Below, piece by piece: positions 1,448 to 36,987 of a DNA stretch of 45,757 nt. The translations under genes and the position numbers were made by a program. The DNA is taken from positions 1 to 45,757 of the forward strand of contig MU053340.1 of NCBI GenBank assembly GCA_013239625.1. The letters run 5' to 3'. The notes under the pieces are model-generated. The model saw nothing but the letters and a program-made list of their open reading frames with translations. It was not told the DNA's origin and ran no database searches. The stretch's first letter is position 1; every line of letters begins with the position of its first letter. Origin of the DNA: Lama guanicoe (taxonomy: Eukaryota).

Positions 1448-1546
1448 CCATAAACCACAACCAGCAATTTCTGGAATGCATCTGTCATAGCCTTTGAATA
1501 GCAAGCTTCTGGGTTATCTTCCTTTTCTTAAGGAATAATAATGGCC
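1448..1546 (-). pseudogene. RDM1: RDM1 pseudogene exon 5 (frameshift and stop)
   Basis: 99 nt. Reads ATT CAA AGG CTA TGA where IQKAMTDAFQKLL is expected (-1 nt); donor GTAAGA. Confidence 0.88.
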
Positions 1547-2451
1547 CTAAATCCAAGAAAAACAAATGGACTTAAAATGCCTATCTGAATAATTGATTTC
1601 TGTTATACATTTAAAAAGAAAAATGCATCTGTGATTCTTAGATCACTATCACAGCAATTAAGGACAGGGCCAACACACACGTGTGGCTGAATGGCTCTGT
1701 TGTAGATACATCCTGGCAGGACACATTTTTACTGCCCAGATCGATTCTGGAAGTTCCTGAAGTACTAGACAGGAGATGCAAGCCAAAAATGCGGCACAAA
1801 TCTCCCATCACTCAGATTTCAAATGGACAAGCTGAAGCTATGCTCCTGCTCTCCCGTGCATAAACAGCTGGAATCGCACAATGAGACAAATTTGGTGGTG
1901 GTGCAGATGATCTGGTCTCTCCCAGGGCATCAGCCACTAGGGTGGATGGTGGAGCCTCCTCCACTCCATTAACTAACAGACCTGCCTCTGACTTAAAACC
2001 CTAACCCCAAATACCACAGGTTCTAGGAAAAAAACTCAGTACCAGCTGGAAAAACCTTTCTAGGGATCTACATTTGACTTTATCCACTCAAGTCCTTGTA
2101 TAGGAAGCAAAGGACTGAAAATTTACACAAGAATTTAAATCTTCAGATGATGATTTTGTTGGGATAACTGAAGGCTACAAGAAATCTGTATTGGAAAGGA
2201 CTATTTTAGCACAAAACAAATTAGTAACCAAAAATGGGGAAAAAAAATTTCCCTCCTCCTAAGCTTGACAGGCAGAGCTCTAAAATTTTAAAGTTAAAGG
2301 TTCTGTAAGGCATCACCTAAGATAAGAACCTATATTGCAAGGCAGAAAAACTCTGCCCAGGGCTTTAGTTGCTTAGCCAGGGTGATGTATCTGAAAAAAA
2401 AAGTTTTAGAAAGAAAGAAAAAAGGAGAAATCCCACCCCCTCACTACCCAC

Positions 2452-2617
2452 CACACACTGGGTAGTCCCAGGGTTCCTCGGCCATGCCAGCTCCAGGACT
2501 CCTGCCCTCACAGGACGGCAACACCACCTCTAAAGCACGGAACTTCAGGCCTTGCTTCTGATGTGGTGCCACAGTATCTTCATTTTCCCTTTCTTCAAGG
2601 TCAGAAAGATCCTGAAG
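2452..2617 (-). pseudogene. RDM1: RDM1 pseudogene exon 4
   Basis: 166 nt, LQDLSDLEERENEDTVAPHQKQGLKFRALEVVLPSCEGRSPGAGMAEEP; cag| acceptor and |GTGGGT donor. Confidence 0.88.
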
Positions 2618-2640
2618 CTGGTAGAATTTTGGTGATGAGT

Positions 2641-2742
2641 TTTTGGGGTTTTGGGGGTTTTTTTAATGGAGGTCCTGGGGATTGAACCCGGGACCTCATG
2701 CATGCCAAGCACATGCTCTACCACTGAGGTACACCCCTACCC
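2641..2742 (-). mobile_element. Vic-1-type SINE
   Basis: 'ggaggtcctggggattgaacccgggacctcatgcatgccaagcacatgctctaccactgag' core. Confidence 0.8.
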
Positions 2743-3091
2743 AGGACTCTGAATTAAAGGCAAGGCTTCAAAATATTTTATTAGAAGTAAAAACTGAACT
2801 CCAGCAAGCCCACTTAATAGTTGAGGTGTCCTGTTGCTTCAAAATCAAGTAAGACTCACAGATGAATTACTAGGTATGGGCAACTATTTTTTATTACATA
2901 CCATACACATACTGGAGAAAATTATGAACACCACCACCAAGTCACTGAGATTATCGTTAATACTACGTGGCAGGTCAATGCTCAGAAACTTGTCTCTAAC
3001 ATCTCCCCACAATCCAGTTCTAGTCTTCTCTCTGAAGTCTAGGATTTCAATATTGAAAGGAGTCTGGTTAGTCAAAGAAAATCTAGTTTAC

Positions 3092-3214
3092 CTTTATGAC
3101 CCTTTTTGACCATCCAGTGAATCCAAAATAGTAACTGGCCAATTCTTGGCATCTGGAGCTGCTTAGAGCAAGGGGATTAGGTTGAACTGCCTTATGCCTG
3201 GTGCCCAGACAAAC
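3092..3214 (-). pseudogene. RDM1: RDM1 pseudogene exon 3
   Basis: 123 nt, open frame, tag| acceptor and |GTAAAC donor. Confidence 0.9.
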
Positions 3215-3908
3215 CTAAAGACATAAGAGGCCTAAAAATATCACAACTTCACACAGAGACTTATTTTGGATACACCTGAGATTTATCAATACCAAACTGA
3301 TAAGTGTGGTTGTGAAGATTAAATAGGACCACAGTTTAAGCAATGAGTTCATAGGAAGCCCTAAATAAATATTATAACTTTTAAATCAATACTTTCCTGT
3401 ATCACTTCCAGTGCCTCTGATTAATCGGAAGGTTTCCCTGACCTCTGATGGTGAAGGTGATGATGAAAGCAACCAAGGAAGTCCTGCAGAAGCCTATTAC
3501 AGGCTTGTGGGTAAGCAAAGGAAGTAAATTGTTTAGTCATGTCATCCTGCAGCTCCTGCTTGAGAATATGACCTGAAGAGGAGATAAGATGGACCTACCA
3601 CTGAAATAGGACCTGAATCTGTAGCAGCTCCACTCCCTATGTAACTAACCCCTGTGAGAAGGAACACACATACTTCTACACATTTTATAAACAACTAAAA
3701 GTATTAGCACTCTTTTAGCATCATCTGCGTTAGCAAGTTCCTTTGAGAGTCCAAGTATCTCGTGTTAGCTCTCTAAGTAACTTAACACATTACTGTGGAT
3801 TTCTTACATTGCTAGTTCTTTCTTATATCTCCATTTCAATTTTAGATAGGATGTAGTATAGAAATATATTCATAAAAGTTTACATACAAATCAAGTCAAA
3901 GCATTCTT

Positions 3909-5064
3909 TTTTTTTTTTTCTTTTTTTCATACAGCTCCCTTGCCCAAAAGATGGCAGGATGTGGTCAACTCCTCCAAAGAAAAGACACAAACGAAGAGGC
4001 AGACAAGAAAATCATTACAAGTCTCTGCCCAGGGAAGGCAACAGTGCCAGGTGTTTCCTTGAGTATACACACAGGACGGTTCTTCCCTCACCAGGGGACC
4101 AGTCCCAGAGGTCCAATCTCCTTCTCCAGGAGCTAGGTGGTAGCAGAGCCAGCCTTAGGCTGGGTCCCACCCCTGGCTAGACTCCTGGGGCTGGCCCAGG
4201 CTGGGAGTGGGCTTCCTTCTCACTGCCGGCTCCCTGGGGGAAGTGGAACCAGCAGAGGAGCCCCTGCTAGGGGAAGACCATGAAGAGAGAAGGGAGCCGC
4301 GCTAGCCCTGGTCCCCGTCATTCCATGCTTTCCCCTGATCTAGATCAATCTGACCTGGGCTGACCCTCCCCACTCCACTCCCGCCCATGCCTTCAGAAGG
4401 CTGGTCTAGGGGAGCCCCTGTGTGAGGCACTGGCCTCAAGACCTGATTCTGTAAGGTGTTGACAAAAGAAAAACCAGACATCGAGGCAACAGGAGAGGAA
4501 CAAAAGCAGCCAACACTGGAAGGGACTCATGACACTAGGACAATCCCATCCCCTACCGCTGGGGCACTGGAGCCCCTATAAGCCTGCTGGGCCCTCCAAA
4601 ACCGTAACATCCTATGGAGACCTGGACCTGCCCCTCTCTTCACAAAGACCTTTCCTGGGTCTCACTCTCCCTGTAAAGCACACCACAGACACATCACTCT
4701 GATCTGAGCAAACAGTGCCTCGCTCAGTTCTCAAGACCTGTCCTTAGTCCCACTACTTCCCTCTGCATCGTCCCGCGCGGAGCCAGGCGAACGAGGCAAG
4801 CGGGGCGCGGCTCGCGTGCGCGCGTGCGGCCTCTCCCTTCCCCATCGCTGAATTCGCTTCCTCCGTCCCTCGCAGCTCCGGTGGGTAATGGCTCTGGCCC
4901 ATGCACCCTAGCTGCCGGCGCTGCGCCGCGCCTTTCTGGGCTCGGCGCCTAGTCGACCTCTGGCCCCGAGCGGGTAGTCAAGAGAGCCCCGCGCCGAACC
5001 ACCGCCGCCTTCCCGCCCCGCCACTACTACGCGCTCCCTTCCCCACCCGCACCCCACTCCCCGC
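3909..5064 (-). mobile_element. Probable L1-mediated retrocopy of a non-repeat, CpG-island-initiated transcript, inside RDM1 pseudogene intron
   Basis: Poly-T at 3907-3927 and flanking direct repeat CAAAGCATTCTT (3897-3908) / CAAAGCATTATT (5065-5076). GC-rich body sits in AT-rich flanks. Confidence 0.65.
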
Positions 5065-5249
5065 CAAAGCATTATTCTATATTGATTTGTTTAGGGGGTC
5101 ACCTTGCAGCGCCAGGCTCGTGCGGGGTGGGGGTTGGTCACCTTGCAAAGCCACGCTCGTGCAGCGGGGGGCGTCACCTGGCCCGGGACTCCCAGTTATT
5201 GGGGCGAGGGCGGCTTTCTGCATCCCTCTCTCCACCCTGGCCAGTTCAC

Positions 5250-5344
5250 CTGCAAGGCCTCGGTCCTGGGTCCGAACTCGGCTCCCACACCAGCAAGGTT
5301 TTGTCACTCCGGATGGGAACTGCGAAAGGCACCAACTCAGCCAT
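5250..5344 (-). pseudogene. RDM1: RDM1 pseudogene exon 1 (frameshifted)
   Basis: ATG at 5344; donor AG|GTGAAC at 5249. Length is 95 nt versus 96 expected; the ...GPRTEALQ end is out of frame. Confidence 0.88.
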
Positions 5345-7348: not shown

Positions 7349-7418
7349 TCATCCCATGTGGCACCCTGTCATCCAGCAGGAGAGTGGCTGGCCTGCACAG
7401 TGCAGCCTGCATTTTACC
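7349..7418 (-). CDS. LYZL6: LYZL6 coding exon 4
   Basis: 70 nt, VKCRLHCAGQPLSCWMTGCHMG*; cag| acceptor. Confidence 0.9.
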
Positions 7419-10400
7419 CTGTGGAGAGAAAGAAGACCAGTTCTTGCTTCCACCTGACCAGCTGCTTCCCCGCCCACATGACCCAGAATAGTGAGGCTTC
7501 CACGCAGAGCCACGCCCAGCATCCCCTTCATGCCCAGCCGTCTAATCTGTCCTCCTTCAGTGCCTCTGATTCTTCCTTTAAATTCCGTTATCCGTGTTGT
7601 TTGCCCTCTTCCCCATTCAATTTGCTTCCACATTTCTTTTTTTTTTTTAATAGATGCACTGAGGATTGGACACAGGACCTCCTGCATGCTAAACTTGCAC
7701 TCTACCACTAAGCTGTACACCCCCCACCACAGGCTTTTGAATTTTTATTATTTTTATTGTTATTTGCTTCTACATTTTCAAATCCTTATCTCCCTCTGAA
7801 GGAGGAGAGCACTGTGTTACAGGGCTGAGAGTTATTAAAAAACAAACAAAAAATCCCAGAGGCAACCATTGACTTTTTTTTCCATGATAGTCATCCCCTC
7901 TTTTGCATGTGTTTTTAGAGAATGCAAGGCACTTAAATCCTTCCCTTTTTCAGTTTCACACAGAGACAGCCACTGATATTATTTATATATCTAGTTTGAA
8001 GATCAGAGAAGTTAAGTAACCATCCCGATGTCCCCCATTGGTAAGCTGACAGCTGGGGTGTCTGCCCAGCTGATGAACAACACACTTATTCCAGAAAATG
8101 TTGCTGCCAGCTATGGAGAGAGGGCCCTGTGGCAGCCAGGTTTCTGTTGCTCCACTGCTCCCAGGCCTACGGCTGATTGAATCAAGCAGGGACACAGGGT
8201 CTAAGCTGAACCCATCAGATTCTCTAGCTCAAGCACTTGAACTGGGACTGAGCCTAGCCAGGCTCTGTGTGGTTGCTTAGGACATTAGCCCATAAATTCA
8301 GGGCAGACATGGTCCTGTGGACAGTAGAGCAGAGAAAGCTGGTCTGCAGAGGAAGTCGTAAAGCAAATACACCAAGAGAAGCAGAAACCTGCCAAGGAAA
8401 GCTTGCTGACAGTTTCCGGCCCTGCTTCCGTCCTCCTCCTGAGGCCCAACCTCACCCCTCGTGTGGGCTCAGTAAGACCCCTTGTCCTCTCAGAGTAAAT
8501 CTCCTTCGGCTAGCTCAGGCGGTTCTGTCACTGCAACCAAAAGAGTTTGGTTTAACTCAGTCAGAGGAAGAGCCAGATCTCGGGGTTCCAAGCCCTGCCA
8601 CTAGCCCACATCTTTCTAGACTGTAGAAGACATCTAGGCCTGCCCTAGTGTCCCTTTCTCTGTCAGCACATCTTTCTTAAGACCCTGCCCACCAGCTTAG
8701 TCCCACGGGGTCCTCCTCACCAGTTCTTCATGCCCCCTGCTCCAGACACGGTCTTTTTTGCACAGTTGATGATTGAGAGAAGGTTGGGGCTCAGCAGTCC
8801 TGAAAGGGAGAAGGAACTGTACTGGTGACAGCACAGGGGACAGTCCCGAAGACTGAGGCGGTCACTGGCTCTCCCCGCACAGGTGTGTGCCGCCCAGAGG
8901 CCCGAGTACTTCCAGATGGGTCAAGGCCTCCCTCCTAGAGGCCCACTGGGGCATCCATACAATGGCTGCTGGAGGTTGGGGGGTGGCCGGGGGTGGGGGC
9001 AGGAGGGACAGGAAGCCTGAGATTTGGGCTGGTTTACTACCACACTTTCCAGCCAGAGTAGATAGTGGTTCACCCCTAGGTTTGGAGGTTTCAAGGGAAA
9101 GCACAGAGACCAAGGCAAAATCATGCTTAAGGAGGGAGGCACTTCAGGTGAACAAAGGAGGAGATAAGGGACAGAGTCATGGACCCGTGGAGCCTCCTGG
9201 ATCAGCTCTGAGTGGGGAGTTTGACCTTGGCCTTTGGTTAGACTGTTAGCCAAAGACAGTACTGCTTGGTGGTGAGATCTGAGCTTTCAGGGCCACCAGT
9301 TTGGCATTTGGCACTGGTTCTATGAGCCTCAGTTTTCTCGTCTGTAAAGTGGGGATCATACTAGTCAGCACTGCATGGCAGTTTGGATGAAATGAGCTAT
9401 GCATGTAAAGTGCTGAGTGCATAATCCACTCTTAATAAATGCTGGCTGCTGCTGCTCTACTGCTGCTGGCTGTGCAGAGCCTGTCTAGAGCCTGGGGAAC
9501 ACCGCGGCAACTCCTATGGATGGGCAATTCAGGACACAAATCAAGCCCTCTGCTCAGTAAAAGGATTCCCTGATTCCTTGAGCCACCCCACCAGGGGCCA
9601 TTCCCAGGCTGTGCGTAGGAAGGGAAGTCCTATGCATAGAGCCTGGTCACCTCTCTCACCTCTCCCACCCTGGGGCCCTGGCCTGACCTTGACAGTCCAC
9701 GTGGGAAGGGTTTTCCGTGTGACTCTGGTAATCGTTGCACCAGTAGTGGCTGTTGATTTGGAAGATGCCGTAGTCAAAGCTGCCATATGTATTTTCATTT
9801 ACCTTTGCTATGATGAAGTCACTTTCCACAAAAGCCAGGCTCAGCCCTTAGATCAGGGAGAAGAGGGTTTTTAGAGGGGACTAAGCTGAGGGAGAAGGGA
9901 GATGCAGGAGGGAGACCAGGAACCAGAAGAAAGGAGCAAGGCCTTAGAGGCTAGATGGGGCTTGCAGGCTACAACACCCATTAGCTTCTCCTCTCATCCT
10001 TCAGTCCATCCACCCACCCATCAGCACAACCGCCCATCAGTCCATCTGTCCATCCATGCTTTCTGCCCTCAACAACCATCTACTGTGTGCCAGAAACTGT
10101 GCAAAGCCCAGGGAGGGACATTGAGCTGGATCAAGTGCAGATGCCGCCTTCAATGCACATGTAGGAGAAGAATGAAGCTATGTGCCTAAAAAAAACACAA
10201 AGCAAGATGAAAGGAGAGAGTGCTGTGAGAGAGATGTGCACAAATTCTGGGCAGAAGGGAGATTTCTCTACCATGGAGTAGGATAAAGCCTTTACACTGG
10301 CTGTTTCCTCTGCCTGGAATACTCTTCCCCCAGATGTTTGGGGGACCCGGTCCTTTATCCATTCAGCACTGCTCAGTGTCACCTCCTCAGAGAGGCCTTC

Positions 10401-10923
10401 CTTGACTTCTCTTCTGTAACATTGTCACCTATCACTCCCCCTGCTTTACTCCTCTGCATAGCATTTATCAGCACCAGGAAGTACTTCGTATATTTGTATG
10501 TTTTGTTAAGAATGCTTCACATTCTTCCCCTAGAATGTGAACACTGTGAGGGAAGGGACTGTGTTGATATCTATACCCCCAGTGTCTAGAAGAGTTCCTT
10601 GGACATACTAAGTGCTCACTGAATAAGCATTGAACGAATATGCAATGCTGGGAAAGGCTTCTTGGAGAGGCTGTTTTCTGAACTTGACTCTGGAAAACAA
10701 GTGACAGAAAAGGACAGCTGGCCACGTAGGGCATGACCGGGAGAGGAGGTGCAGTGGGGGCTGGGGGGAGGGAATGGCACTCACAGTCACTCAGGGAGTG
10801 GCCCTCAAACCCATCCAAGTCCTCCTTGTGTGGCACTTTGGCCAAGTCACAGCGGCTGATGGGTCTGGCCTGACTTATGGCCACCAGGCAGCTGACCCAG
10901 GAGATGAGTAGCAGGCTGGGCAT
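7349..10923 (-). CDS. LYZL6: Lysozyme-like protein 6 (c-type lysozyme family), 4 coding exons, 148 aa open frame; may be a divergent or decaying paralog
   Basis: join(10785-10923, 9688-9846, 8721-8799, 7349-7418) = 139+159+79+70 = 447 nt. Protein: MPSLLLISWVSCLVAISQARPISRCDLAKVPHKEDLDGFEGHSLSDWLSLAFVESDFIIAKVNENTYGSFDYGIFQINSHYWCNDYQSHTENPSHVDCQGLLSPNLLSIINCAKKTVSGAGGMKNWVKCRLHCAGQPLSCWMTGCHMG*. Has a signal peptide and the ES and DYGIFQIN motifs. Confidence 0.9.
7634..7728 (-). mobile_element. Vic-1-type SINE in LYZL6 last intron
   Basis: Diverged core 'caggacctcctgcatgctaaacttgcactctaccactaagct' with T-tail. Confidence 0.75.
8721..8799 (-). CDS. LYZL6: LYZL6 coding exon 3
   Basis: 79 nt, LLSPNLLSIINCAKKTVSGAGGMKNW; cag| acceptor and |GTGAGG donor. 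Confidence 0.9.
9688..9846 (-). CDS. LYZL6: LYZL6 coding exon 2
   Basis: 159 nt carrying the catalytic Glu/Asp region; aag| acceptor and |GTCAGG donor. Confidence 0.9.
10290..10640 (+). mobile_element. L2 3' fragment
   Basis: 'ctgtttcctctgcctggaatactcttccc...ctagaatgtgaacactgtgagggaagggact...aagtgctcactgaata'. Confidence 0.65.
10785..10923 (-). CDS. LYZL6: LYZL6 coding exon 1
   Basis: ATG at 10923; signal peptide followed by SRCDLA; donor T|GTGAGT. Confidence 0.9.
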
Positions 10924-11694
10924 CCTCGATGGAGAGGAGGCACAGTGGAGGGCGTGCAGTGGCAGACCGGCAGGTCCTAGGGTCTCCCAGACTGCCTGCT
11001 GGTTTGCTCCGAGGGCCTGAGGAATCTGGAGAGAGTAGCCAAATGTCCTCGCTCACTCACTGCTCCCCACCTGGCTGTTTCTAGTCTTTCCCCTCATTTA
11101 TTATGTTATAAATACTCTTTTATTGCGGAAAATCATATACGTTTATAAAAGGAGAAAGAATAGTGTCATGAACCTCCGTGTACCCATTGTCCAGCTTTAG
11201 GAGTTAAAAACCAAGGCCAATCTCCTTTCATCTGTAGGTCTCCACTTTCCTTTAGCTGTTCTCACCCTTGTGATGGGCACCCAGCTTGGGGCAGCATTTG
11301 GGTACAGGGCTGGGGAGTGAGGTGGGCAAAGGAGATGAATGAGAACTCTCCTTCACTAGTATTTGTTAGTTTGTATTTGCATATGTGATTTCAGAGAATG
11401 GGCTAAGACAATGGACACTGATCACTCCCAACCGCACACCCCATGTGACACGTGACTCTCCCTAAGGGGATGCCCTGCCTGGTGCAGTTCGCTGGGAGCC
11501 GGTTGGTTATAGGTCCTATTCTTTTTTTTCCATTCAGAGGTGCATATCATAAAGCAATCAAGAATGATCTAGTTGTAGAAACAACCCTCACTTTCACTCT
11601 CTGTGTGTGTCAGTCAGACTAATTCATTTAAAGTGTACAATTCGGTCATTTTCACAGAACTGTGCAACTAGCACCTCAGTCAATTTTAGAACAT

Positions 11695-11698
<4 letters not shown>

Positions 11699-11735
<37 letters not shown>
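11699..11735 (+). repeat. (TG)n microsatellite, about 18 units
   Basis: Uninterrupted tgtgtg... run. Confidence 0.95.
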
Positions 11736-11737
<2 letters not shown>

Positions 11738-14351
11738 CTTTCCCCTTAAACTATATCCTTAGGGTTCCTCCACCCACCAGCTTCATGAGTCAGGACAAGA
11801 TGCTGCCCTGATGCCCTGTTTCCTCAGGGATGTTTCATCCTGTTTTCTAAGACTCGCTCATAGCAGCCTGTGCTTGTGACCATTCTTTTGCTTCTCTTTC
11901 CCACCCTAGAGTTGCCAGATTGAGCAAATAAAATTACAGGATGCCCAGTTACATTAGAATTTCAGACAAACAACAAATACTTTTTTAGTGTAAGCACGTC
12001 CCATGCAACCATATTCTGCCCTGACTCAGTAGGTTCCTTCAGAGACAGGTGTCACTGAGCCTCAGAAAGCAGGGAGCCCCATCTCTGCTCCTGAAGCCCC
12101 CTCTTGGGGTTCCCTTGGGGAAGACAGTGGTTCTGGCAGGTGCGCACCCACCTTCTCTCTCCAAGCTTACCTCTCTCCTATCCTTCTCTGACCCCAGGTC
12201 CCACCTCCTCTTCCTCAGGAGCTACCCTTTAGCACCCCTTGCTCACCACTCTCCAGTGTCTAAAAAAATGGCAGGAGTTCTGGGCCACCCCCACCTTCTA
12301 GAACCCCAGTTGTGTGACATCATCACTCTTCTAGAAATATTCTGGTCTTAACCATGCAAATTGGCTCAGTTTTGAGGTCTGTCCTACCTTCAGGCAGAAG
12401 TAGCAGATGGACCTGGAAGGATTGGTGACACTGTGATGCAGACCACTGGGTGGGACAGGGTAGAGAGCGCTGGCTGCTCTGTCTGCCTCTCTCCTGCCTT
12501 CTGGGAACAGGACTATCTGTGAGGGAACTCCTTCCCCCATGGGGTTTTAGTGGGGCTGTCAGTCGCAGGGCCCTGCCATCCATGTGACAGGGTATGCCCA
12601 GGCCACAACCAGTATGTCTTGACTTGAAATTAAGCAGAGCAGCTCAGCTTCTTACAGGAAGCCTTGGGTGTAGGGCCAGAGGCCGACAGTTTGGAATCCT
12701 GTGCATCCAGCCCATCTGAGGGACTAAGCCTCCTTGAAGAGGGAGCAGTGTCCAGATAGAATTTCAGTCCCAGGGTCCACTCTTTCTACAACCTAAACAC
12801 GCTCTGGTCCTTACTGCAACCTTGCGATTCAGTAAAGGTCCCTTCTTGTGTAAACATATTTGAGTTGGGTTTCTGTCACTTGAAACCAAAGAGACCTGCC
12901 TAATAGAGTCAGCATGGGGCTAACCATCCTTGGAGTGGTGACCTGACAACCTGCTAGCTCTCCATGAAGGCCACACATGCTAGTATCATAAGTCACCAAG
13001 GAAGTCTGGGAGATACTTCCATCAACTGCAGCAAAGAGGAGGCAAGAGAAAGTTTTGTTACTGATCCTCACCCCACCCTTGGAGACAGGTTGCTAGGGTC
13101 TGACAGGAAGCAGGAAGAGCTTTCTAAGTGGGCAGTGCTGCCCTGTACCCTCCATCTCTGGACTTCCCTCCCCAGCAGGACAGCAACACATTACATCTTG
13201 GGATGTGAAGCCAGCAGGACTTGGGTGGAGGCAGAACCCCGGGAAGAGGGCATTCTCGGGGTACCACTTTATGAGGTACTGCTTGTGACCAGAAATCTAC
13301 AGGTGCTTCAGCTGACCCAAATAACCTCGTCTGTGCAGAATTAGAGCCACGGGCGGAAGGAGAGGTTTCCATAGCCCAGGTCCACATGCTGGAAATTGGC
13401 CCAAGGGAGGATCTCCCTGCAGCCTAAAGTCTTAGAGGGGATGATGGCAGCACTCAGAGGGGGACCAGAGGGACCCTCAACTCTCCACCCACCCAACTGT
13501 GACAGACATGAGCCCTGGATGGGTTCTTACCCAGTCAAGGAACCGGAAAGCCCAACCTGGGGCCCATTAATAAATTCTGGATGTCATAGCCTAGGGCAAG
13601 AGGACATGAAGGCCACAGATCATCTGTCTATATAAACATTTACAAGTTATAAATCAAACTAACAAGCTGTCAACTGAAGGTTATGTTTGTAGTAGAAGGT
13701 TCTAAAGCCTTGTTGCCTCAAAAGCATTGCTGAACACTTTCTTCCATAAAATCATAGTCTGGCTCCTGAGAGAGGCCCCAGTGGGACTGGGAAGTGCCAA
13801 CGCCTGCCGCTGGCCCTGAGAACTTGGGGAAGAGAAGACTGCTTATGTTCCTGCTCAGCAAAGTGCAATGGAAGATCCTAGATTGTGCTGTGTAAATAAG
13901 ATAAGAGGAATGCAAATGTGCCTTTGAAAACTTAAATATGGACCTTAGTGAATGAGTCTGGATCGTTGATAGGCTAGATAGTGGTCTAAAATCCCATGGT
14001 GGTCCAGTCCAAACACACCATTCACATAACTCAGAAAGAAGCACGCCAGCCCTGTGAGAAATGAATCTTTCCACTGAGCTAAAAATCTGCCTGTTTCCAC
14101 CTCTCTGCTCAATCGCAGGCCCCATGCATCATCCACACAGCACTGTACCCTCCTGCATGGGATGGCCAACTGCTGGCCATGGGAGCCAAACCAAAGTTTC
14201 TGACAAAGAACCAGGTTCATGGAATTGTGTGTATAGGTCAAGCATGTGACTACATCATTGTATGTTCCAGTGTGATCATGGCTGAGCATCTACATGGGAC
14301 TTACCTATTATTGTATTACTTTCCTTCAGTTTCTCTTTTATATGATAGTAG

Positions 14352-14877
14352 TGCTACCAAGTCCTAACTCATTCTGCTCATGGCACGACAGGACTATAAA
14401 TTGGGAGATGAGGTGTTGGGGCAAGGAATAAAGGCTTTATTTGGAAAGCTGGCAGACTGAGAGGATGGCCCACTAATGTCTTGGAGAACCACCCTCCCCC
14501 TAGTCAGAATACAGGCTCCTTTTACACACACACACACAAAACAGGTGACAGGGTGTGGTTGGTTGTTGCAAACTTCTTGCTGTAGGAATTCTTTGTTCCT
14601 GCAGCTGTCCAGGTCATGGTGCTCCTGAAAAACCTCCAACAAAACAAAAGCTACCTTCTATTCTGCAACTTCTTATCTTTATATAAGTGCAGAAGTGTTA
14701 ATATCTTAAAGGTCAGAGCCTTGAGAAAAGGCTCTCCTGTTTACCAGGCAGGCTAAAGGCAACATTGTTTTACAAAAGGCTCAGAGCCTGCAAGAGTAAA
14801 CCCAGAAAAAAAGGCACAGTGGTTAAAACCAAAGGAACAGACCCAACATAGAGTCAGATCTGGTCCCCTCTATTACA
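14352..14877 (-). mobile_element. Solo ERV1-class LTR, 526 bp
   Basis: TG...CA termini, TSD GTAG (14348-14351 and 14878-14881); alignable along its length to 37146-37674 in reverse orientation. Confidence 0.88.
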
Positions 14878-14914
14878 GTAGGGCATTATATTAATTTTTA
14901 AATTTACCCTCATT

Positions 14915-15300
14915 CTGAATAGATGAACTGCAGTATATTCATATGATGAAATACTACTCAGCAATAAAAAAGGAATGAACTATTGGTACATAAAACAACA
15001 TGGATAAATTTCAAAATAATTATGCTGAGTGGAAGAAGCCAGAGCAGAAAAAAAGAAGTATACATTTACAGAAATCTCTAGAAAATATGAGCTAACCTAC
15101 AATGACTGGAAGCTGCTCAGTAGTTGCTTGGGGTGAGGAATTAGAAAGGAGCACAAGGAAATTCTGGGGGGTGATGGAAATGTTCACTATCTTGGTTGTG
15201 ATGATAGTTTTTTGGGTATATAACATATTAAAAACTACCAACTTGTACACTATAAATGTGTCATTTATAGTATATCAATACCTCAGTGAAGTCCTTAAAG
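14915..15300 (+). mobile_element. Old L1M 3' fragment
   Basis: 'aaatactactcagcaataaaaaaggaatgaactatt...tatgctgagtggaagaagccaga...gtgatggaaatgttc' typical of L1MB/MC/MD. Confidence 0.7.
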
Positions 15301-16299
15301 ACTTTTAAATTAATATCATTACACAAAATATATTTTACGAAAAGGGAATTATGGGTCTGTCATGGTTGAGAACCCCAGCATCAGGAAAATTCAGAAGCGG
15401 CGAATTGTTTCTCATACATGCCTGTTCTCAGGTCAACTCGCTGTGCGATTTATCCAGTGGCCGCTAGAGGCCAGCAGCGGCCAGCAGTGGTGCATGTACA
15501 GGAAGTTGGGGCTGGGGTGGGCAACAACACTTCTTGAAAGAATTCCCTCCTCAATGCTCGCTAGCCCGGGAAGTGGGCATTAATCACCCCAATTTGCACG
15601 TGGTAGAGCTGGGATTTGTGTTGTGATCTCTTTGGCTCCTGATTCCACTTTGTTGGTCCAAGAGACCTTCCTGCGCTACCTCATGTCCTGTCTCCAGTGG
15701 GTGGGCAGCCACACCACTCATACATCCGCAGGCTCAGGGTGCCCTCTGTTGGCCTTGCACCTGACTGAAACAAGGCAGGGTTCCGTTGAAGCACTGAAAA
15801 GATCATTTTTATAAGGGAGAGGGAAAGGAGAGAAGGTTTAATTAGGGGTAGGGAGGTGATGGTGGAGCACCTGTGAGCTGCTCCAGTGGAGGTCTCCCCG
15901 CCAAAAAAAAACTATCGCTGATGTCTCTTGAGCCCTCCCAGTGCGTGAGGCATGATGTAGCGTGTGCAGTGAATCGTTTCATCATCAGAGCACTCTTGGA
16001 AATTATCTGCAGAGATGTTAAGTAACTCACCCAAGGTCACAGAGCTCGTAGGAGACAGAGCAAGGATTTGAATCCAGATGTGACACCAACGTGGTGGGTT
16101 TGGCTGCCATTCTGTACTGCTCACTTTCACGGACCTGTCTTTCTTGCTCTTCGGAGCTGGGGCATTACTGAGTTCACGTGGTAAATTGGTTGGTGTTGGT
16201 AGCAGGTGGTGGGTATTTTAGTTTAACCTTCTGGAGATAGAGCTTCTGATACGTCAAGAGAATTTTAAGCCCCTGCGATGGCCCAGGAGGGAAGTCCTC

Positions 16300-21229: not shown

Positions 21230-21257
21230 TAGATAATCTGCTTTTCTTCACTTAACA

Positions 21258-22430: not shown

Positions 22431-22436
22431 TTTATT
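22431..22436 (-). terminator. FKBP10 polyadenylation signal AATAAA
   Basis: TTTATT on the plus strand about 660 nt past the stop, at the end of a pyrimidine-rich (sense) 3' UTR. Confidence 0.75.
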
Positions 22437-23097
22437 TGGCACAAAAGAGAAAGGGGTCTCATGCCAGTTTAATCTTTTGAGTGTGCAGAGCTCTGCCCAC
22501 CCCCTCTCACCCTCAGCCCCCAATAAGCCCCTCTTCTCTTTGTCCCTCGGGGGGAAGGAACAGGTGGAGGAGGAATGTGACAGGGGAAGGGACCAGGACA
22601 GGTGAGGTAGGGCTGCCATCCTGAAACCACCCCCTTCCCTAGGAACCAGCCAGAGCCAAGGGAGGAGAGCGTGCTCCTGGGGAGCTGACAGAGTACTGGG
22701 GGCTGGAGGCAGGGGGTGGGTGGAGATGGTGGGGGAAAGTACAGACAAAGGGGGAGTTTGGGGAAATTAAGAAATGATGAGCTTGGCCCTGCTCAGTGTC
22801 TGCTGCCATGGAGTGAAGGTCTGGGTGAGGGGCCGGTGATGATCCCAGCCAACCCGCAGACGCCAGTCATCCCCAGATTGACCTTGTAATTGCAAAACTT
22901 TTAAGGAAGGGGTTTGGGGTTGAAAGAGAAAAATCAAATAGAGGTCTGTGCTGTGATTTTACTCTCAGGCAGTGGGAAGACCAGAGCTGTACCCTCTGGC
23001 CACTTTTTAGAGGCTTCCAGACCTCATCCCAGCAGGGGAGAGGGTGACTGTCCCCACAGACATGCGCCTTTGCCTTGGGGCCCAGGCCTCTGGCCTT

Positions 23098-30040
<6,943 letters not shown>

Positions 30041-31848
30041 GGTGCCTGGAGCTGGGAAGGCCGGCAGTGAGGGTGAAGCGAGAGAGCCGCTGCCACCAGA
30101 CTCCTTTTCCCCCTCCTCCTCCCAGAGCTGGCTCCCCCTCTTCCTGTCCTCCATCCCCTACCCCCGCCCTGGCTGGTCCACGTGGAATGGGGGCTGGGGA
30201 GACTGAGCTGGCGGGGCGGGGGAGGGGGAGTGGAATAGCGGGACGAGGCAGGGCTGATAGTGTTAAGAGTCGGAGGAAAGAACCACAAAGAACTCCAGGT
30301 TTACCCCCACCCTCACCCTGAGGGGTCTGAGAGACCTGGGGCCTGGAGGGGGAGGGAAGTTCAGAAAAGTTGAGAAGTCGGAGCTGACTTTAGGGAAAAA
30401 AAAATTCAGAGCCTTTTTGTTTTTCTGGAACTCCCGGGTCCTAAAGCCGAGCTAAGGCCTCGCTTCTCTGGCTGGCTTCCCCAAATCCAGGCCTCTCCAT
30501 GTGGCTGGTGAGTCTCCAGAATGTGAGGGGTATCTCAGTGCTCCCTCCCACCCCTTCTGCCCCAGGAACGGCCTCTCCAGGGACAAGCTGCTTTGTCCTG
30601 CAAAAGCTGGACTGCCAGAGGACTTTCTGACGTGGGGATGGAGACCGAGTGGGAAGTGGCAGGAGTGGAAGGTGTGCAAGGTAAAACCAGGGGTGTGCCT
30701 CCCCGTTGCGGGCTGGGGGGCAATTGGAGTTGAGACAGGAAGGGGGCCATTCAAGCAGAGCCATTCAAGGAATGCTACAGCAATTAACATCAAAATGGTG
30801 GAAGATTCAACCCCTAGTAGGCCTTGAGGCTCAAGGTGGTGGGAGATTTGACTTCTAGCAGATCTTGAGCTTCTTTATACGCCCATTGTAATATATTAAC
30901 GTGGCAAATAACATGCCCACAGGCACCATGGCAGTCCCAAGCCTAGCCACAGAAGGTTAAAGAGTGGGAAATGGCCAACTTCCTGGGAATCCCAGCCCCT
31001 TCCCCAGGCTAGTTAGACTGCTCCTTCCACTTACTAGCATATGAAGCCACCAAGTCCATAAAAACTGGCAACACAGTGCCTCACGACTGCTGTCCCCTCT
31101 CCCTCCCTCTTTGGAGACGGAGACAGCCCAAACTCAGTCTACGGAATGTGTACCTACTTTTAATCTGAGCACCCAACCCCCACACCTCATGGCCTTTCTC
31201 GTGCCTTTCAATGTACCTCTCTGAATAAATCTACCTTTACTCAACTGTGCTGGCTCTTGAATTCTTTCCTGCGCGAAGCCAAGGGCCCACACTTGGTGGG
31301 ACACGTCCCAGGGGCTCAACCGAAGCCTGGGACACGGCCCTTCTCACACCCCAGATCCATTTTTCCTGCATCAGAGTGACCTCTTCAGGGCTGAAGGTGG
31401 AGCGTGAGCAGAAAGACCGCTGTGATGGAAGACCAGGTTCCAGGGCTTGGGCAAAGTAGAGGGAGGTGGGACTTCCCTCAATTTCTTGGTCTTAAGGGGG
31501 TGACGGGAGGTGCGGTGGTGCTGTCTTTGTGTGGGAGGGGCTTTCTGGGCTCCCCATCCCTGTGACAAGCCTTCCCACACCCACTCACCATCTGCCAAGG
31601 GGAAGACTCCCAGGGGCAGGAGGTCAGGGACTCAGGACACCGCTGAGCTTTCTGAAAAGAAAGAAGACGCAGCTCTCAGCCCCTCAGAGACCCTGACCCA
31701 AGCCACCACCCCGTCTTGCTGACGCCAGTGCCCGGCGCTAAGACCCAACGGATACGCCGGCCGGGCTGGGCCCCGAGTCGGCCCGCCCAGCGGGGACGCT
31801 AGCTGGGCGGGGAGAGCCGGCGGGCGCGGAGTGGGCAGCGGAGGGGGC
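30041..31848. promoter_or_regulatory. FKBP10/P3H4 head-to-head (bidirectional) promoter region
   Basis: Divergent gene starts at 30040 (-) and 31849 (+). GC boxes (GGGGCGGGG near 30213; GGGCGGGG near 31805) and CpG-rich flanks. Confidence 0.7.
30731..31373 (+). mobile_element. Solo ERV1-class LTR (MER41-like appearance), 643 bp
   Basis: TG...CA termini, 4-bp TSD GAGT (30727-30730 and 31374-31377), AATAAA at 31224-31229, U5-like 'gaattctttcctgcgcgaagccaag'. The family assignment is by recall. Confidence 0.85.
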
Positions 31849-34800
31849 CTGGCTCAGGCGGCGTGGGGGCTGCTGTGGCTGCTGCTGGGCAGCGGCGGGG
31901 CGCAGTAGGAGTACAGCTTCCAGGGCTTCCCGCCCGAGGACCTGATGCCCCTGGCCGTGGCCCACGGGCACGCGCTGGAGCAGGATGAGGGCGAGAGCTG
32001 CACTACGCACAGTTCAAGGTGAGCGCCCGGCCGGCGCCGGCCACCCTGTTGGGTCGGGAGGAGCGCGGCTCTCACCCAGCACCCTGACCGCCGAGTCTTC
32101 CCGTCCACTCGGGGCTGCGGGCTCTGGCCCTGCCGACCGGCTCTGTCCCCACCCTGCAGGCTAACCAGCTGGAGAAGGCGGTGGCCGCGGCCTACACCTT
32201 CCTGCAGAAGAACTAGAAGCATGATCTCACCATCAAGTATCTCAACTACTACTGGGGGCTGCTGGACGCCGCCGAGGGGCCCCTCCTGGACTTGGAGACC
32301 CAGCCTGAAGAGGCCGTCTTCCTCCGGGCGTGAAGCTCTACAACAGCGGGGGTTCCCGCAGCAGCACGGAGGACAGGGAGCGGGCCCTGGCCGAGTACCT
32401 GGCCATCTTTGCCCGGTGTCTGGCTGGCTGAGAGGGGGCCCATGAGCAGGCGGACTTCAAGGACTTCTACCCAGCCAAAGCAGGTATGCCCTCACCCAGA
32501 CTCCTGTGGGCACCCCTCTCACCCACAGGCCCTGCTTCCCAGAATTCCTAAGTTCCCTTAACACAAATATTCATTCCATACACACTTATGGAGCCCCTAC
32601 TAAGTGCTTGGGAGGTGGACCGGAATAGTGTCATCCCAGCCATCAGAGCCTTTAGGCGCTAACAGGTCACCTGCCACTGGGCGCAGAGGGCTACAGTGGG
32701 GAGGGTCCAAAGTGCCGGGCATCGGTGCAGAGAGGATGTGATATCCCAAAAGGGTCTGGGGAGGTTGGGGTCACAGGCCTTCCACGCAGAGGGAAATGCC
32801 GGTGCCAAGGTTGGAAACAGCCCAGCAGGTATGTGCAGAAAGCAGTTTGTGGCCAGAAATCACCCCTGGGGATTCTGAAAGGCAGAGTCCCTCAGCAAGG
32901 GCAGAAAGGACTGTCCTGAGGTTCTCTCACTGGGCTTCAGTCCTACTTCCAAACCTCACCTGCCATTCCCCCAGAATGCCCTGGCTCCCTCTCGCTTGGG
33001 GGTGGTGCCCAGCCCACAGCAGTCTTCCCCAGCATCACTTGTCACTTTACACACATTATCTCATGTGATCAGGAAGCAGAGCTGGGATTGGAAGTCATTT
33101 CTGTCATCCATATCATTGGATGTGGATGGAGCTGGTCAGCACACCAGCTCCTTACTGCTGCCACTCACCCCCACCAGATCTCTCTGCAGAATCCCTGTAG
33201 TGCAAGGTGGACTGTGAAGCCAACTTGACTCCCAACATGGGCGGCTACTTTGTGGAAAAGTTTGTGGCCACCATGTATCACTACCTGCAGTTCGCCTAGT
33301 ACAAAAGTGAGCCTCCTGGCGGGCCTGGGGCGGGGGAGAGCACTGTGTGGGGAGTCATGCAGAGTCATAGGGCACTGTCCCTCAGAATTGAGGACCCTGG
33401 GTGATGGGAGGGAAGGCTAGAGTTACTGGGGCAGGTGAAAGGCTTGTGGGAGGGAAGAGAGAGCAGCCCCAGGGGAGAATTCCAGGGCCTCTCAGGTAAA
33501 TGACTAGATAGCCAACAATTGCATAGCACTTGACAGTTTACAAAGCCCTGCTACATCTGTTTGCCTCACTTGATCCTCTCACAAACTGCCAATAGCTGAC
33601 ATTACTGGGCCCATTTTTCAGATGAGGAAACTGAGGCTCATAGAGGGCAAGGGGCTATTAGTCACATGGCCAATAAAAAGTGACACCAGGACTCAAGGTT
33701 CTTCTCATTTGAGGGAGATTCTGGCATCAGCTGGGGCTCAGATGGACGATCTCCAGGGTCTCTGCTATGCAGAGATGCCCAGATTCAGACAGAGGCTGGA
33801 GCTGGAGTAGAGGAGCTGAAGACCAGGAGACCCTTTGTGGGTCCAGTTGGCTAAGAGGTTGAGGACTGGGCCACCGGCCTCTGATTTCCCAGTCCCCTCA
33901 TCCTCCAGCTGTGTGAGCTGGAGCCTTTGACCTAACCTCTCTGTGCCTTATATTTCTTGTCTGTAAAATGGGGATAACAATAACAGTGAAGCTTACATGA
34001 GCTACACGGGGCATAGGAGAAGTGCCCAATATGTTCTAGATTGCATTATTATTGGGTAGGGTGAGTAGCTCAACAGATATTCTGGGAGGCAGCTGGGGAG
34101 CCAGGGGCACTGGACTAAATTGGGAGGTAGGGGTGGGTTAGGTGAGGGTTATACCCCTGAAGGTGGGGAAGTGCCAGGGCCACTACTCCCTCCTGTCCTG
34201 CCTGCAGTGAATGACGTTTACCAGGCTACCCACAGTGCCGCCAGCTACATGCTCTTTGACCCTGGAGACAGTGTCTTGCAGCAGAAGCTGGTGTATTACT
34301 GCTTCCACAGGGCTCGCTGGGGCCTGGAGGAGGAGGCCTTCCAGCCCAGGAAGGTGGGGCATCAGGACATGTCATTTGATAAAAATATCCTGGCTTCCTC
34401 CAAAGGCAGGATGGGAGATGAAAAGAAAGAATATGGTTTGTGGTTGGAGTCCTGGGTTCAAACCCAGCCCCACGAGCTGTGTGGTCCTGGGAACACCATG
34501 GACCTTTCTGAGTCTGTTGCCTCACCTGCGAAATGGGGGTGGTATTGCCTACCTGACCAGCACAGTGCCTGGGAGGTGGGAGGTAAAAAATAACCTGTCT
34601 GTTCCTGCCTTCTCCCCTCCCTACCCTCGTCATCCTCACTGCTGGCCTTTGGCCTTCTTCCCCAGGGACCCCCTCACCTGGACCAACTGAGGAAACTCCT
34701 TGGGAGTCCAGGGCAAGACTGGCAAATATGGCACACATGGTGCCACTCCCGATTTCCTTGTCAGTGGCAGACAGTGCTAATTGATCAAGGCATTCTTTTT

Positions 34801-36987
34801 CATTGAGCCCTCAGAATCCTTCTTACTTTTAAGCACATTAAGCAGCTATGGTTTTTCAATCAGCGTGGAAACTGATACCTGTTCCCGGGTCCTTGAGCTG
34901 GAAAAGGGCCAGAGGACCCAGATCCTAGGAGCTCTGGCTCCTCCACCATCTGGCAGCAAGGCCCAGCTCACCTCACTTTCCTTCCCTCCGCCCAGGAGGC
35001 CATGCTCTACCACAACCAGACAGCTGAGCTGCAGGAGCTGCTGGACTTTGCACACATGTACCTGCAGGCAGATGATGAGGTAAGTGGACCCCTGCCCTAC
35101 AGGGGTGGATGCACGTAGAGACTCCTTAGTCCTCTTCCCGGGGCTGCTGTGCCAGAGCTCAGCCCCAGCTCTTGGCAGTCGGCTATTGGGAAGCAGAGAG
35201 ATTTCACCTGTCCCTTATTTACGCCTGCCCTTCTCTCCCCACTCCATGTTCTCATGTCCACTCTTCTGTCCATGTCTAAATCTTGCTTCTCCTGGACCCA
35301 GCTCGGGTTGACACCTCCTCCAGGAAGCCCTTGCTGCCCGTCCTGACTCTGTCTTCTGGGCTTGCAGTGCCTCCCTGCACTGGAGTTACTTGCAGTCCTC
35401 ATCCATCTCACCCACCCCCTTCTCCACCTAGCCTCCTAGAGGACTGTGCTCCAGGACAAGGGACCAGGGTATTCCCAGCTCTCCCACAGCACCTGGCACA
35501 GAGCTGGGGCTCAGAAACTGAGTTTGAATGAACCAGTGAGTGGATAAATGGATGAATGAATGCAGGACACCAGGAAGGAAGGACCACAGTGTGTTATTAC
35601 ATTGATTCTGAATGAGGGCTTGAGAGCCTGAGTTCTCAGAGGTGTTGCTGCCCAGCACGTATTTATCCATTCCCTCTTTTCTTCGTGCACCCATGTCCCC
35701 CTCATCAAACACAGTGACCGGGTCTGGGCTGGGAGCAGGTAGGCTTTGGTGCTAGCCAGTCTTGGCTCTACCACCTCCCAGCTGGGCAACCTCCAGGCAA
35801 GTCTTAGGTAACCCTCAAACTTCCATTTCTTTATCCGTTGAATGGGGAGAATAATGCCCATCTCACACTGTTGGGCTGAGACTCAAATGAGATCCAGCAT
35901 ATAAAGCACTTAGTATAGAGCTGGCACACAGTAGGTGCTCAAATAACTCTTGTTGCCTGTTCTTTGCCAGACACCATGCTTGGGCCAAGGGTAAATTCAT
36001 GAAAGGCACAGTGTCTTGCCCAAGCAGCTTACTGATGCATGAATCACTATGCAATGGGAGAGGCCATCACAGGGCACTGGAGGTGGCCTCCAGACCAAGC
36101 CAGGGTCATCAGCAAGGACTGCATCCTGGAGCTGATGCCTGGCATTGGAGGGATAAACAAGAGCTATCCAAGGTGTTCCTGGTTGGGAAATAGCATGAGC
36201 AGACAATATTCAAGGACTAGCAGTATTCCCTGGGTATTTATTGCTGAAAAGGTGGGCTGTAGAGAGGGCAATGCTGACAGTAACACTGATTCTCTGCCAA
36301 TGGAGCAATTCACACATCAGTTCAGGGAGGGGGCAGTTTGGGAACAGGACTTTGGGAGAAACCCTCAAATCATTCCTGTGTGAGATCTTGAGGCTGGGAA
36401 GGAGGAGCTTTGGGGATTGATGGGATGGGAGGGCCCCCTTGGCCAGGAAGGGAGCCCACCTGGGTTTGTGCCTGCTGTGACCTGGTTTCTCGTAGATGGA
36501 GCTGGAGGAGACAGAACCACCCATGGAGCCTGAGGACCCACCATCTGATACCGAGCTTGGGGGGAGGGCGACTACGAGGAGAGCATCTATACTGACTGGT
36601 GGCAGGAGCCGGATGCCAAGGGTGATGAGGCTGAGGCCAGTCAGTGACTTCATCTTGGTGGAAGGGTGGGGATGCAGCCTGGGGTGGAGTTTGGAGACAG
36701 CGGGATCCATGCCACCGGCTGCAGACTCTGTGGAGTAGGTGTAATGGGCGTTGGCACGTCTCCTCTGGGGGCCTCTAGCCTGTTAGCAACCCCCTTCCCC
36801 CTTGGTGGAGGACGACGGCATCTTTCCTGAAGCAGAGACCAACTGAGACCTGTTCTTGGGGAGCCTCACTGCTCCCTGCCCCACCTCCCCTGAGGACAGC
36901 ACCCAGGCACCTGTTGGGAACGGAGTGGGGGGCTAATCCCAATGCTCTTTCCTTTCATTTTCAGAGCCAGAGCCTGAACTAGCATGG
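31849..36987 (+). pseudogene. P3H4: P3H4 (SC65/LEPREL4) unprocessed pseudogene
   Basis: Exon blocks 31849-32018, 32160-32483, 33178-33306, 34208-34353, 34996-35079, 36496-36639, 36965-36987 translate to P3H4 peptides ([93 protein letters not shown]). Lesions: ATG>CTG at 31849; stops at 31906, 32214, 32429, 33198, 33297; -1 frameshifts near 32329 and 36560; ~290-nt deletion in exon 1; terminal stop replaced by TGG. Confidence 0.95.

Follow-up and report, generated by a model that had tools for sequence, protein, structure and literature searches.

A probable derived rearrangement and duplication joins an intact FKBP10 to RDM1-LYZL6 sequence in the guanaco

Why do exons of RDM1 and LYZL6 lie 3' of FKBP10 in the guanaco, at the place where NT5C3B would be expected? 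The question is raised by contig C664 of the Lama guanicoe assembly, analysed here over its entire length of 45757 bases (the window) and one of 55231 contigs in 2.05 Gb. Three of its genes are on the minus strand, namely RDM1, which is broken, a LYZL6-like gene, which is altered but still open, and FKBP10, which is intact; the plus strand has a dead P3H4 (SC65). We take JUP-P3H4-FKBP10-NT5C3B-KLHL10 to be the ancestral run. A first-pass annotation, made from the sequence alone, had read RDM1 and LYZL6 exons 3' of FKBP10, which tblastn and splice models bear out, and had proposed a lineage-specific mosaic segmental duplication or rearrangement, a proposal supported by multi-copy segments, by the gene order of ruminants and by LRRC37 at the paralogues. 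The window is a real piece of the camelid chromosome homologous to human chromosome 17, and it very probably records a real, derived rearrangement and duplication in which FKBP10 stayed functional.

The same order is found a second time in the genome. From end to end (1-45757) the window is collinear with C6970:1624339-1575627 on the minus strand, at 85-93% identity (79-96% by block; blastn), and this match sits in the middle of a scaffold of 9.26 Mb. One unbroken 16.5-kb alignment spans the junction (window 11713-27925 against C6970, 88.2%), with no N gap at the junction in either copy; the sole N run in the window is 40938-41019, and 1-40937 is without any N. Kimura two-parameter distances between the window and its copies on C6970, C5890 and C7820 are 0.08-0.11. 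At such divergence the window and C6970 copies are not haplotypes and have too few k-mers in common to confuse an assembler. Since RDM1-LYZL6-FKBP10-P3H4 is the order in both of these diverged copies, it predates their separation. The junction is not a one-off assembly error.

A further copy, on scaffold C5890, narrows the boundary. There NT5C3B is followed by a stretch collinear with window 1-18236, made up of RDM1, LYZL6 and another ~7 kb; the counterpart of window 18232-19528 lies inverted 25 kb further along, and homology to this NT5C3B-linked copy stops at window 19528. The first-pass annotation had rightly seen a junction and put it somewhere in ~11100-22400; as C5890 homology runs to 19528, the boundary between the RDM1-LYZL6 unit and the FKBP10 3' flank can be refined to 19.5-23.1 kb. 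The features on its two sides are:

10924..19528, no strand: non-coding stretch of the duplicated unit, also present at C5890:1005.6-1013.1 kb and C6970:1599.1-1610 kb (blastn)
19529..23097, no strand: junction zone, the FKBP10 3' flank, present only in the FKBP10-bearing copies (window, C6970), with no other copy among the matches listed in the genome search

The non-coding unit also matches the inverted piece at C5890:1037.8-1039.1 kb. It holds a (TG)n run at 11699-11735 (Tandem Repeats Finder) and an interspersed repeat of ~525 bp at 14351-14877, and no Pfam domain was found in it.

On the other side of the junction stands FKBP10:

23098..30040, minus strand: FKBP10, intact, 10 exons, 1752-nt coding sequence
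30040-29793, 27103-26958, 26671-26482, 26363-26218 and 25846-25657, minus strand: FKBP10 exons 1-5 (splice model)
25481-25336, 24790-24598, 24184-24042, 23810-23647 and 23283-23098, minus strand: FKBP10 exons 6-10 (splice model)

All nine introns are GT-AG, and the 583-aa product ends in HEEL. It shares 578 of 583 residues with Camelus ferus FKBP10, its exon-7 peptide is 100% identical to that of Camelus dromedarius, and where it departs from camel its residues agree with listed isoforms of Vicugna pacos. With a complete open reading frame, canonical splice sites, the HEEL terminus and close identity to orthologues, the window gene is predicted to be the functional orthologue and not a diverged spare. 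The first-pass count of two dead and two open genes was right (RDM1 and P3H4 dead, LYZL6 and FKBP10 open), but its description of both open genes as diverged does not hold for FKBP10. A search of the genome with the exon-7 peptide gave full-length matches only on C664 (100%) and C6970 (83%); what else it matched was either the FKBP9-like gene that adjoins NT5C3A on C12518 or further FKBP repeats. Compared with the window exons, the FKBP10 of C6970 is disrupted by at least nine frameshifting indels and two stops and lacks a further 15 bp, and that of C2834 carries two frameshifting indels and two stops in exons 1-2. Sampled 31-mers of window 19001-29000 were present in two RNA-seq runs at 0.32 and 0.28, which by our estimate is about the exonic share of that interval.

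Could the window nevertheless be a redundant, decaying duplicate, with the true FKBP10-P3H4 locus beside JUP missing from the assembly? P3H4, RDM1 and possibly LYZL6 are degenerate in it, the assembly is fragmented, and JUP is found on yet another scaffold, C1600, for which no match to FKBP10 or P3H4 was reported. However, FKBP10 is free of lesions over 583 codons and only 5 residues off camel, against ~10% at neutral sites between copies; exon-peptide searches for FKBP10 and P3H4 gave no better copy; and the two RNA-seq runs hold 28-32% of the words of 19001-29000. We consider this explanation improbable.

The fate of NT5C3B is the second part of the answer. As the first-pass annotation had noted, no NT5C3B coding exon is recognisable at 11-22.4 kb: none of 237 stop-to-stop open reading frames (ORFs) of at least 33 aa overlapping 10981-22621 matches Pfam UMPH-1 at E<=0.05, a scan that took 237 of 242 listed ORFs and left out five at 10471-11093, in the LYZL6 exon-1 region. 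A genome-wide UMPH-1 search gave 18 matches, none on C664, and three exon peptides from the NT5C3A paralogue of this genome, used in a relaxed tblastn, had no credible counterpart in the window. Two places in the genome have UMPH-1 matches with an intron-exon structure. The gene on C12518 is NT5C3A, nearly identical to human NT5C3A in the Protein Data Bank (PDB), while that on C5890 is of NT5C3B type, its best PDB match being human 7-methylguanosine nucleotidase (7ZEE). Pfam scans of C5890:960-990 kb found KLHL11 (plus strand), KLHL10 (minus strand) and NT5C3B-like exons (plus strand), and KLHL11-KLHL10-NT5C3B is the conserved neighbourhood. The exons are:

C5890 ~980948-981049, 982625-982815 and 983666-983865, plus strand: NT5C3B-like exons (UMPH-1)

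There is a frameshift inside the exon for profile positions 87-148, with an in-frame TAG, and the next exon has another shift and a stop. The last NT5C3B exon was not found in C5890, the window or C6970 with the paralogue peptide, a short query that makes this weak evidence. With these lesions, the only NT5C3B-type gene of the assembly is a pseudogene. Thus NT5C3B is missing from its place, as first proposed, and beyond being displaced it has decayed on another scaffold. Camelids may have lost the gene in connection with the breakpoint; in a loose literature search for NT5C3B loss, no listed paper contained the gene name. At C12518:148-183 kb, NT5C3A adjoins FKBP9-like exons, an arrangement that mirrors the NT5C3B-FKBP10 pair and presumably represents an old paralogous neighbourhood.

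Which order came first is best judged from the genes further out. On C5890, RDM1-LYZL6 is followed by two WNT genes, one on the minus strand at 1098.8-1100.5 kb and one on the plus strand at 1179.2-1185.4 kb; the latter shares 158 of 159 residues of its last exon with human WNT3, a better match than WNT3A gives. Between the NT5C3B-like exons and RDM1 there is a weak LRRC37 trace of 23.4 bits, below the Pfam cut-off. On C6970 the order is PLEKHM1 exons (1493-1506 kb), an LRRC37 gene (1553-1572.5 kb), RDM1/LYZL6 remnants and then the block; the remnants, at 1574.07-1575.37 kb, correspond to window 2-656 and 7226-7864, and the block begins at the equivalent of window 45757. FKBP10-NT5C3B-KLHL10, for its part, is an adjacency that we take to be common to human and mouse.

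In ruminants the pair has other neighbours. The interval listed for cattle chromosome 19 runs ARHGAP27, PLEKHM1, RDM1, LYZL6, RPRML, GOSR2, WNT9B, WNT3, NSF (PMC7655849), and the gene list for sheep gives GOSR2, RPRML, LYZL6, RDM1, PLEKHM1, ARHGAP27 (PMC9104502, Table 3). Both halves of this order are kept in the camelid, on separate scaffolds, where each abuts one side of the former FKBP10|NT5C3B boundary. Since RDM1-LYZL6 lies between PLEKHM1 and RPRML-GOSR2 in these lists, the camelid order is derived. The first-pass annotation had allowed that its gene order might be ancestral in other artiodactyls; for ruminants it is not, as both lists place RDM1-LYZL6 elsewhere.

The converse polarity, in which RDM1-LYZL6 originally lay beside FKBP10 in artiodactyls or laurasiatherians and ruminants, human and mouse are derived, draws on the varied placement of RDM1/LYZL6, which differs between human, mouse and ruminants. 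The region is also unstable in dog, where a complex copy-number region on chromosome 9 is described as orthologous to RDM1, ARHGAP27 and LRRC37 (Berglund et al. 2012, PMC4053742). Given these differing placements and the instability in dog, the polarity is not obvious from any single species. However, cattle and sheep agree, as listed, on PLEKHM1-RDM1-LYZL6-RPRML-GOSR2, and this genome itself retains both halves: on C6970, PLEKHM1-LRRC37 adjoins RDM1/LYZL6 remnants, and on C5890, WNT9B-WNT3 comes after RDM1-LYZL6. NT5C3B, moreover, is broken exactly at the new junction. The adjacency FKBP10-NT5C3B-KLHL10, common to human and mouse, also speaks against it, and an ancestral camelid order is very improbable.

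Redundant fragments occur in the assembly: the small contigs C40915 and C40343 are 100% identical to window 956-1319 and 42233-42584, and C1633 is a 100% redundant overlap with C3131, so that naive copy counts would be inflated. Of the sampled sequence words, 76-81% of the 31-mers of window 19001-29000 are present in 14 DNA runs (four organism labels, six studies), and the sequence of this interval therefore exists in several animals. That the window is a chimera of an RDM1-LYZL6 copy and the FKBP10 locus, built through repeats while NT5C3B truly adjoins FKBP10, might be suspected of a small whole contig from a paralogue-rich region of so fragmented an assembly, with tiny redundant contigs such as C40915 and C40343, but it is scarcely credible when C6970 has the order assembled independently at ~9-11% divergence in a gap-free alignment over the junction, when paralogues so diverged have almost no common 31-mers that could mislead an assembler, and when NT5C3B stands in gap-free sequence beside a different RDM1 copy on C5890.

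The rearranged segment belongs to a family of duplications. The first-pass annotation had called for a count of copies; blastn found many of RDM1-LYZL6 and at least three of FKBP10-P3H4, all counts being lower bounds as the genome searches rank best candidates only. Against its own genome the window matches many RDM1-LYZL6 paralogous pieces at 85-94% identity, and copies lie on at least 10 contigs, for example C6456 (93.5% over 3.6 kb), C9403 (92-96% over 6 kb) and C7820 (90% over 3.8 kb). RDM1 and/or LYZL6 pieces occur on C7820, C6403, C6456, C4274, C4626, C1236, C951, C7848 and at C6970:9.21 Mb. A partial FKBP10-P3H4 copy stands at the start of C3131, and the copy on C2834 is 95% identical to it. 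On C6970, C6403 and C3131 the equivalent of window 45757 is followed by an inverted LYZL6-RDM1 fragment. These are segmental duplications in the usual sense of at least two copies of at least 1 kb in one genome, conventionally at at least 90% identity, although several copy pairs fall below 90% and are older than that cut-off. They are also mosaic, as segments from different ancestral loci, RDM1-LYZL6 and FKBP10-P3H4, are juxtaposed in both the window and C6970. We doubt that C7820 is the untouched ancestral RDM1-LYZL6 locus, because a JUP-exon-like fragment adjoins its LYZL6 copy and C7820 is thus mosaic too. A Pfam scan of 137 ORFs found no domain in the flanks at C7820:1466-1472.5 kb, C6970:1625-1630 kb and C9403:20-22.4 and 29-40 kb.

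LRRC37 accompanies these copies. The assembly has 58 matches to its repeat (PF15779) on 13 contigs and 9 to its C-terminal domain (PF14914) on 7 contigs. Giannuzzi et al. (2013, PMC3530683) report a single copy for cow and one complete copy for dog, and describe this locus as the ancestral single-copy site. The camelid number is above that single copy, although fragmentation and redundant contigs may inflate it. LRRC37 adjoins the paralogues at C6970:1553-1572.5 kb, C6970:9182-9207 kb, C951:169-198 kb and C6456:23.7-26.2 kb; C6456, which runs on into LRRC37 repeats, is the closest paralogue of window 1-3573 (93.5%). The suggestion that LRRC37 would be found to the left is therefore true of the paralogous copies (C6970 at two sites, C951 and C6456), while the window itself has no Pfam LRRC37 match and ends short of any LRRC37 sequence. 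Predicted proteins of other laurasiatherians fuse RDM1 domains with LRRC37 or PLEKHM1, which fits an adjacency of the three genes. A loose literature search, judged by title, found nothing on LRRC37 duplication in camel or alpaca. At C6970:9205311-9207395 and C951:197064-198629 the LRRC37 repeats lie inside long open frames (1138 and 877 aa), and some LRRC37 copies may be coding.

P3H4, which faces FKBP10 head to head, has the opposite fate in the two main copies:

31846..36986, plus strand: P3H4 (SC65) pseudogene, from sequence reading, exon alignment to the C6970 copy and tblastn with whale SC65

In the window the start codon is CTG, a TAG follows at 31906-31908, and ~270 bp are deleted inside exon 1. 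Exon 4 adds two more stops, and exons 2 and 3 contribute as well, which makes five altogether; a single base is missing from exon 3 and another from exon 7. Intron 2 has been removed precisely, with exons 2 and 3 joined at 32312/32313, while introns 1 and 3-7 are kept. This intron is 136 bp long on C6970 and is also precisely gone, with the others kept, in the C3131 copy (8001-14000). This looks like partial intron loss, perhaps via conversion with a cDNA-derived copy. The window P3H4 is not a processed (retrotransposed) pseudogene, as only intron 2 is gone and the head-to-head place beside FKBP10 is kept.

The C6970 copy, by contrast, has eight exons, all GT-AG, and 446 codons. It shares 423 residues with blue whale SC65 (444 aa), and in exon 1 its identity to SC65 of Camelus bactrianus reaches 98%. 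The copy carries a single in-frame TAA near the end of exon 3, at ~C6970:1586759, with two amino-acid changes nearby. As this TAA and the two changes recur in a partial copy on C3579 (31.3-31.6 kb), a sequencing error is unlikely; the TAA may be an old, shared lesion or may have spread by gene conversion. An exon-5 peptide search gave six matches (C664, C6970, C3579, C3131, C2834 and a 56% paralogue on C1007), none better than C6970; no intact P3H4 turned up in the assembly. With the TAA in the best copy, functional P3H4 cannot be asserted anywhere in it.

C3579 carries a partial P3H4 5' region at 30.4-32.3 kb and a processed retrocopy with stops at 799999-802168. At the 5' end of the retrocopy the equivalent of window 31089-31468, upstream of the start codon, is joined to the last 84 bp of exon 1, which suggests that the source transcript began with an alternative first exon further upstream. 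On the same scaffold, 25 kb from the retrocopy, there is a match to the C-terminal domain of LRRC37.

How could this arrangement have arisen? We infer the order of events, their mechanism and an age beyond the camel-llama split from the copies described above, and we offer the particular order tentatively, as possible rather than probable. In the first event, the LRRC37-RDM1-LYZL6 locus would have rearranged with the FKBP10|NT5C3B boundary. The best fit would be an inversion of the NT5C3B-to-PLEKHM1 interval, with a ~20-kb RDM1-LYZL6 unit duplicated in inverted orientation at both breakpoints. Such a unit, consisting of RDM1, LYZL6 and ~8.6 kb beyond, is found at the 3' end of FKBP10 (window, C6970) and at the 3' end of NT5C3B (C5890). 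An inversion with inverted duplications would put the unit in opposite orientation at the two new junctions, each retaining one ancestral flank. It would explain why the FKBP10 3' flank joins the LYZL6 side of one copy of the unit (window, C6970) and the NT5C3B 3' side the RDM1 side of another copy, which runs to WNT9B-WNT3; relative orientation on one chromosome is unreadable from separate scaffolds. Next, NT5C3B would have lost its 3' end and then decayed. Later, the ~50-kb block RDM1-LYZL6-FKBP10-P3H4 would have been duplicated in inverted orientation at least once, with partial copies following. Complementary decay and local gene conversion may then have left FKBP10 in the window, where P3H4 and RDM1 were lost, and a nearly perfect P3H4 on C6970, where FKBP10 was lost. 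FKBP10 survives in the window only, and P3H4 is best preserved on C6970.

A single inversion from NT5C3B to PLEKHM1 is not sufficient, as on C6970 the P3H4 side of the block, not the FKBP10 side, faces LRRC37-PLEKHM1. As for age, a distance of ~0.1 suggests tens of millions of years, more than the camel-llama split, at mammalian neutral rates, a rough dating. An age before the split is in keeping with the camel proteins, since FKBP10 of camel matches the copy in the window and SC65 of camel the one on C6970.

Several points weigh against a derived rearrangement and duplication, or against parts of its history. The C6970 block is oriented opposite to what a single inversion predicts, so that a second event must be assumed. 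C5890 and C6970 are only 0.016 apart over the LYZL6 part but 0.097 apart over the RDM1 part, and such uneven divergence means that gene conversion blurs any dating. Outgroup gene order comes from the cattle and sheep lists only. The window is a short contig that ends before its neighbours on either side, and its place beside JUP or LRRC37 is taken from the paralogues. The presence of 31-mers is not proof of linkage over the junction, and contiguity rests on two assembled copies together with k-mer presence. A further, unassembled copy could exist. The P3H4 of C6970 may be dead too, given its TAA, which would weaken complementary retention.

We see here a known kind of event at a known unstable site, that is, lineage-specific rearrangement and segmental duplication. 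In human, RDM1-derived fragments (the RDM1 pseudogenes) presumably travel with LRRC37. The nearest likeness is the primate LRRC37 core duplicon and the architecture of 17q21.31, treated in PMC3530683 and also by Bekpen et al. (2012, PMC3371713). As described in the former, LRRC37 there too edges mosaic intrachromosomal duplications on a chromosome homologous to human 17, the ancestral site is near PLEKHM1/ARHGAP27, and rearrangements and inversions accompany the copies (PMC3530683). Unlike the primate case, the camelid blocks captured FKBP10-P3H4, and NT5C3B was destroyed by the break; unlike typical human duplication blocks, most camelid copies are only 85-94% identical and thus older. Reciprocal (complementary) gene loss after duplication of a multi-gene block is a general concept. 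It has in common with the camelid case two linked genes duplicated together, each copy keeping a different member, but differs in that the best camelid P3H4 copy carries one stop codon.

Outside primates, the dog region resembles the camelid one as a case of instability in the RDM1/LRRC37/ARHGAP27 neighbourhood, but as reported it is a polymorphic, array-detected copy-number variant, whereas the camelid copies are old and diverged and involve FKBP10, P3H4 and NT5C3B. At the ruminant locus, as in the camelid, RDM1 adjoins LYZL6, with GOSR2-WNT9B-WNT3 on the LYZL6 side and PLEKHM1 on the RDM1 side (PMC7655849, PMC9104502). In these lists, however, the pair appears once, between PLEKHM1 and RPRML, while in the camelid it is multi-copy and borders FKBP10 and NT5C3B.

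In the literature that was searched, a camelid LRRC37-linked expansion, an only intact FKBP10 on an orphan contig, complementary decay of FKBP10-P3H4 and a dead NT5C3B appear to be undescribed. A fuller account would join them: the LRRC37 core duplicon would have expanded in camelids independently of primates, and this expansion would have broken FKBP10-NT5C3B, killed NT5C3B and copied FKBP10-P3H4 at least three times, and reciprocal loss would have left FKBP10 and P3H4, which in other mammals have a shared promoter region, supplied from different loci, the best P3H4 with a premature stop. As a whole we hold this account to be speculative and rather unlikely.

A second, non-primate reshaping of the human-17 homologue linked to LRRC37 bears on whether the site is intrinsically fragile across mammals. 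In practice, with the intact FKBP10 on a 45.7-kb orphan contig and a broken copy on a 9-Mb scaffold, annotation, orthology and synteny pipelines may pick the wrong FKBP10 or P3H4 or call a loss. FKBP10, which encodes a collagen chaperone, and P3H4 act in collagen cross-linking, and defects of human FKBP10 lead to bone disease. The split gene pair, the stop in the best P3H4 copy and the dead NT5C3B are candidate camelid gene losses.

The remaining genes of the window are those of the RDM1-LYZL6 unit:

1453..5344, minus strand: RDM1 pseudogene (tblastn with ferret, whale and alpaca RDM1 proteins)
1453-1556, minus strand: RDM1 exon 5, split over two frames, i.e. a frameshift
2465-2635, minus strand: RDM1 exon 4 (tblastn)
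3086-3202, minus strand: RDM1 exon 3 (tblastn)
5267-5344, minus strand: RDM1 exon 1 (tblastn)
7349..10923, minus strand: LYZL6-like gene, splice model with exons 10923-10785, 9846-9688, 8799-8721 and 7418-7349

Exon 2 of RDM1, the core of the RNA recognition motif (RRM), and exon 6 were not found in the window by tblastn with the ferret, whale and alpaca proteins, and exon 7 would fall left of the contig end. With the exon-5 frameshift and the loss of exons 2 and 6, the window RDM1 is broken, whereas all seven exons are kept in the C5890 copy (tblastn). The LYZL6-like model has a 148-aa open frame and GT-AG introns. In its exon 2, two conserved cysteines, both kept in the C5890, C6970 and C7820 copies, have become serines, and exon 4 has gained two cysteines. 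By the disulfide topology of lysozyme C, two of the four disulfides of the product would break.

Two intervals complete the window:

30041..31845, no strand: head-to-head interval of FKBP10 and P3H4, with an interspersed repeat at ~30731-31373 that has many genome copies
36987..45757, no strand: downstream of P3H4, facing the JUP side of other mammals, with a copy of the ~525-bp repeat at 37153-37675 and the N gap 40938-41019

The ~525-bp repeat stands at 14351-14877 and, inverted, at 37153-37675 in the window and at C5890:1013077-1013601 and 1039104-1039622; it has many genome copies at 75-85%. It sits at several homology boundaries, among them both ends of the inverted C5890 segment and the start of the C9403 homology to the window. 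On C1600:3920977-3923920, two JUP exons are each doubled, ~2.2 kb apart and with identical scores, which reflects either a local tandem duplication or assembly redundancy. At C7820:1471905-1472201, directly beside the LYZL6 copy at the scaffold end, there is a fragment with two stops that resembles JUP coding exon 1 at 58% identity.

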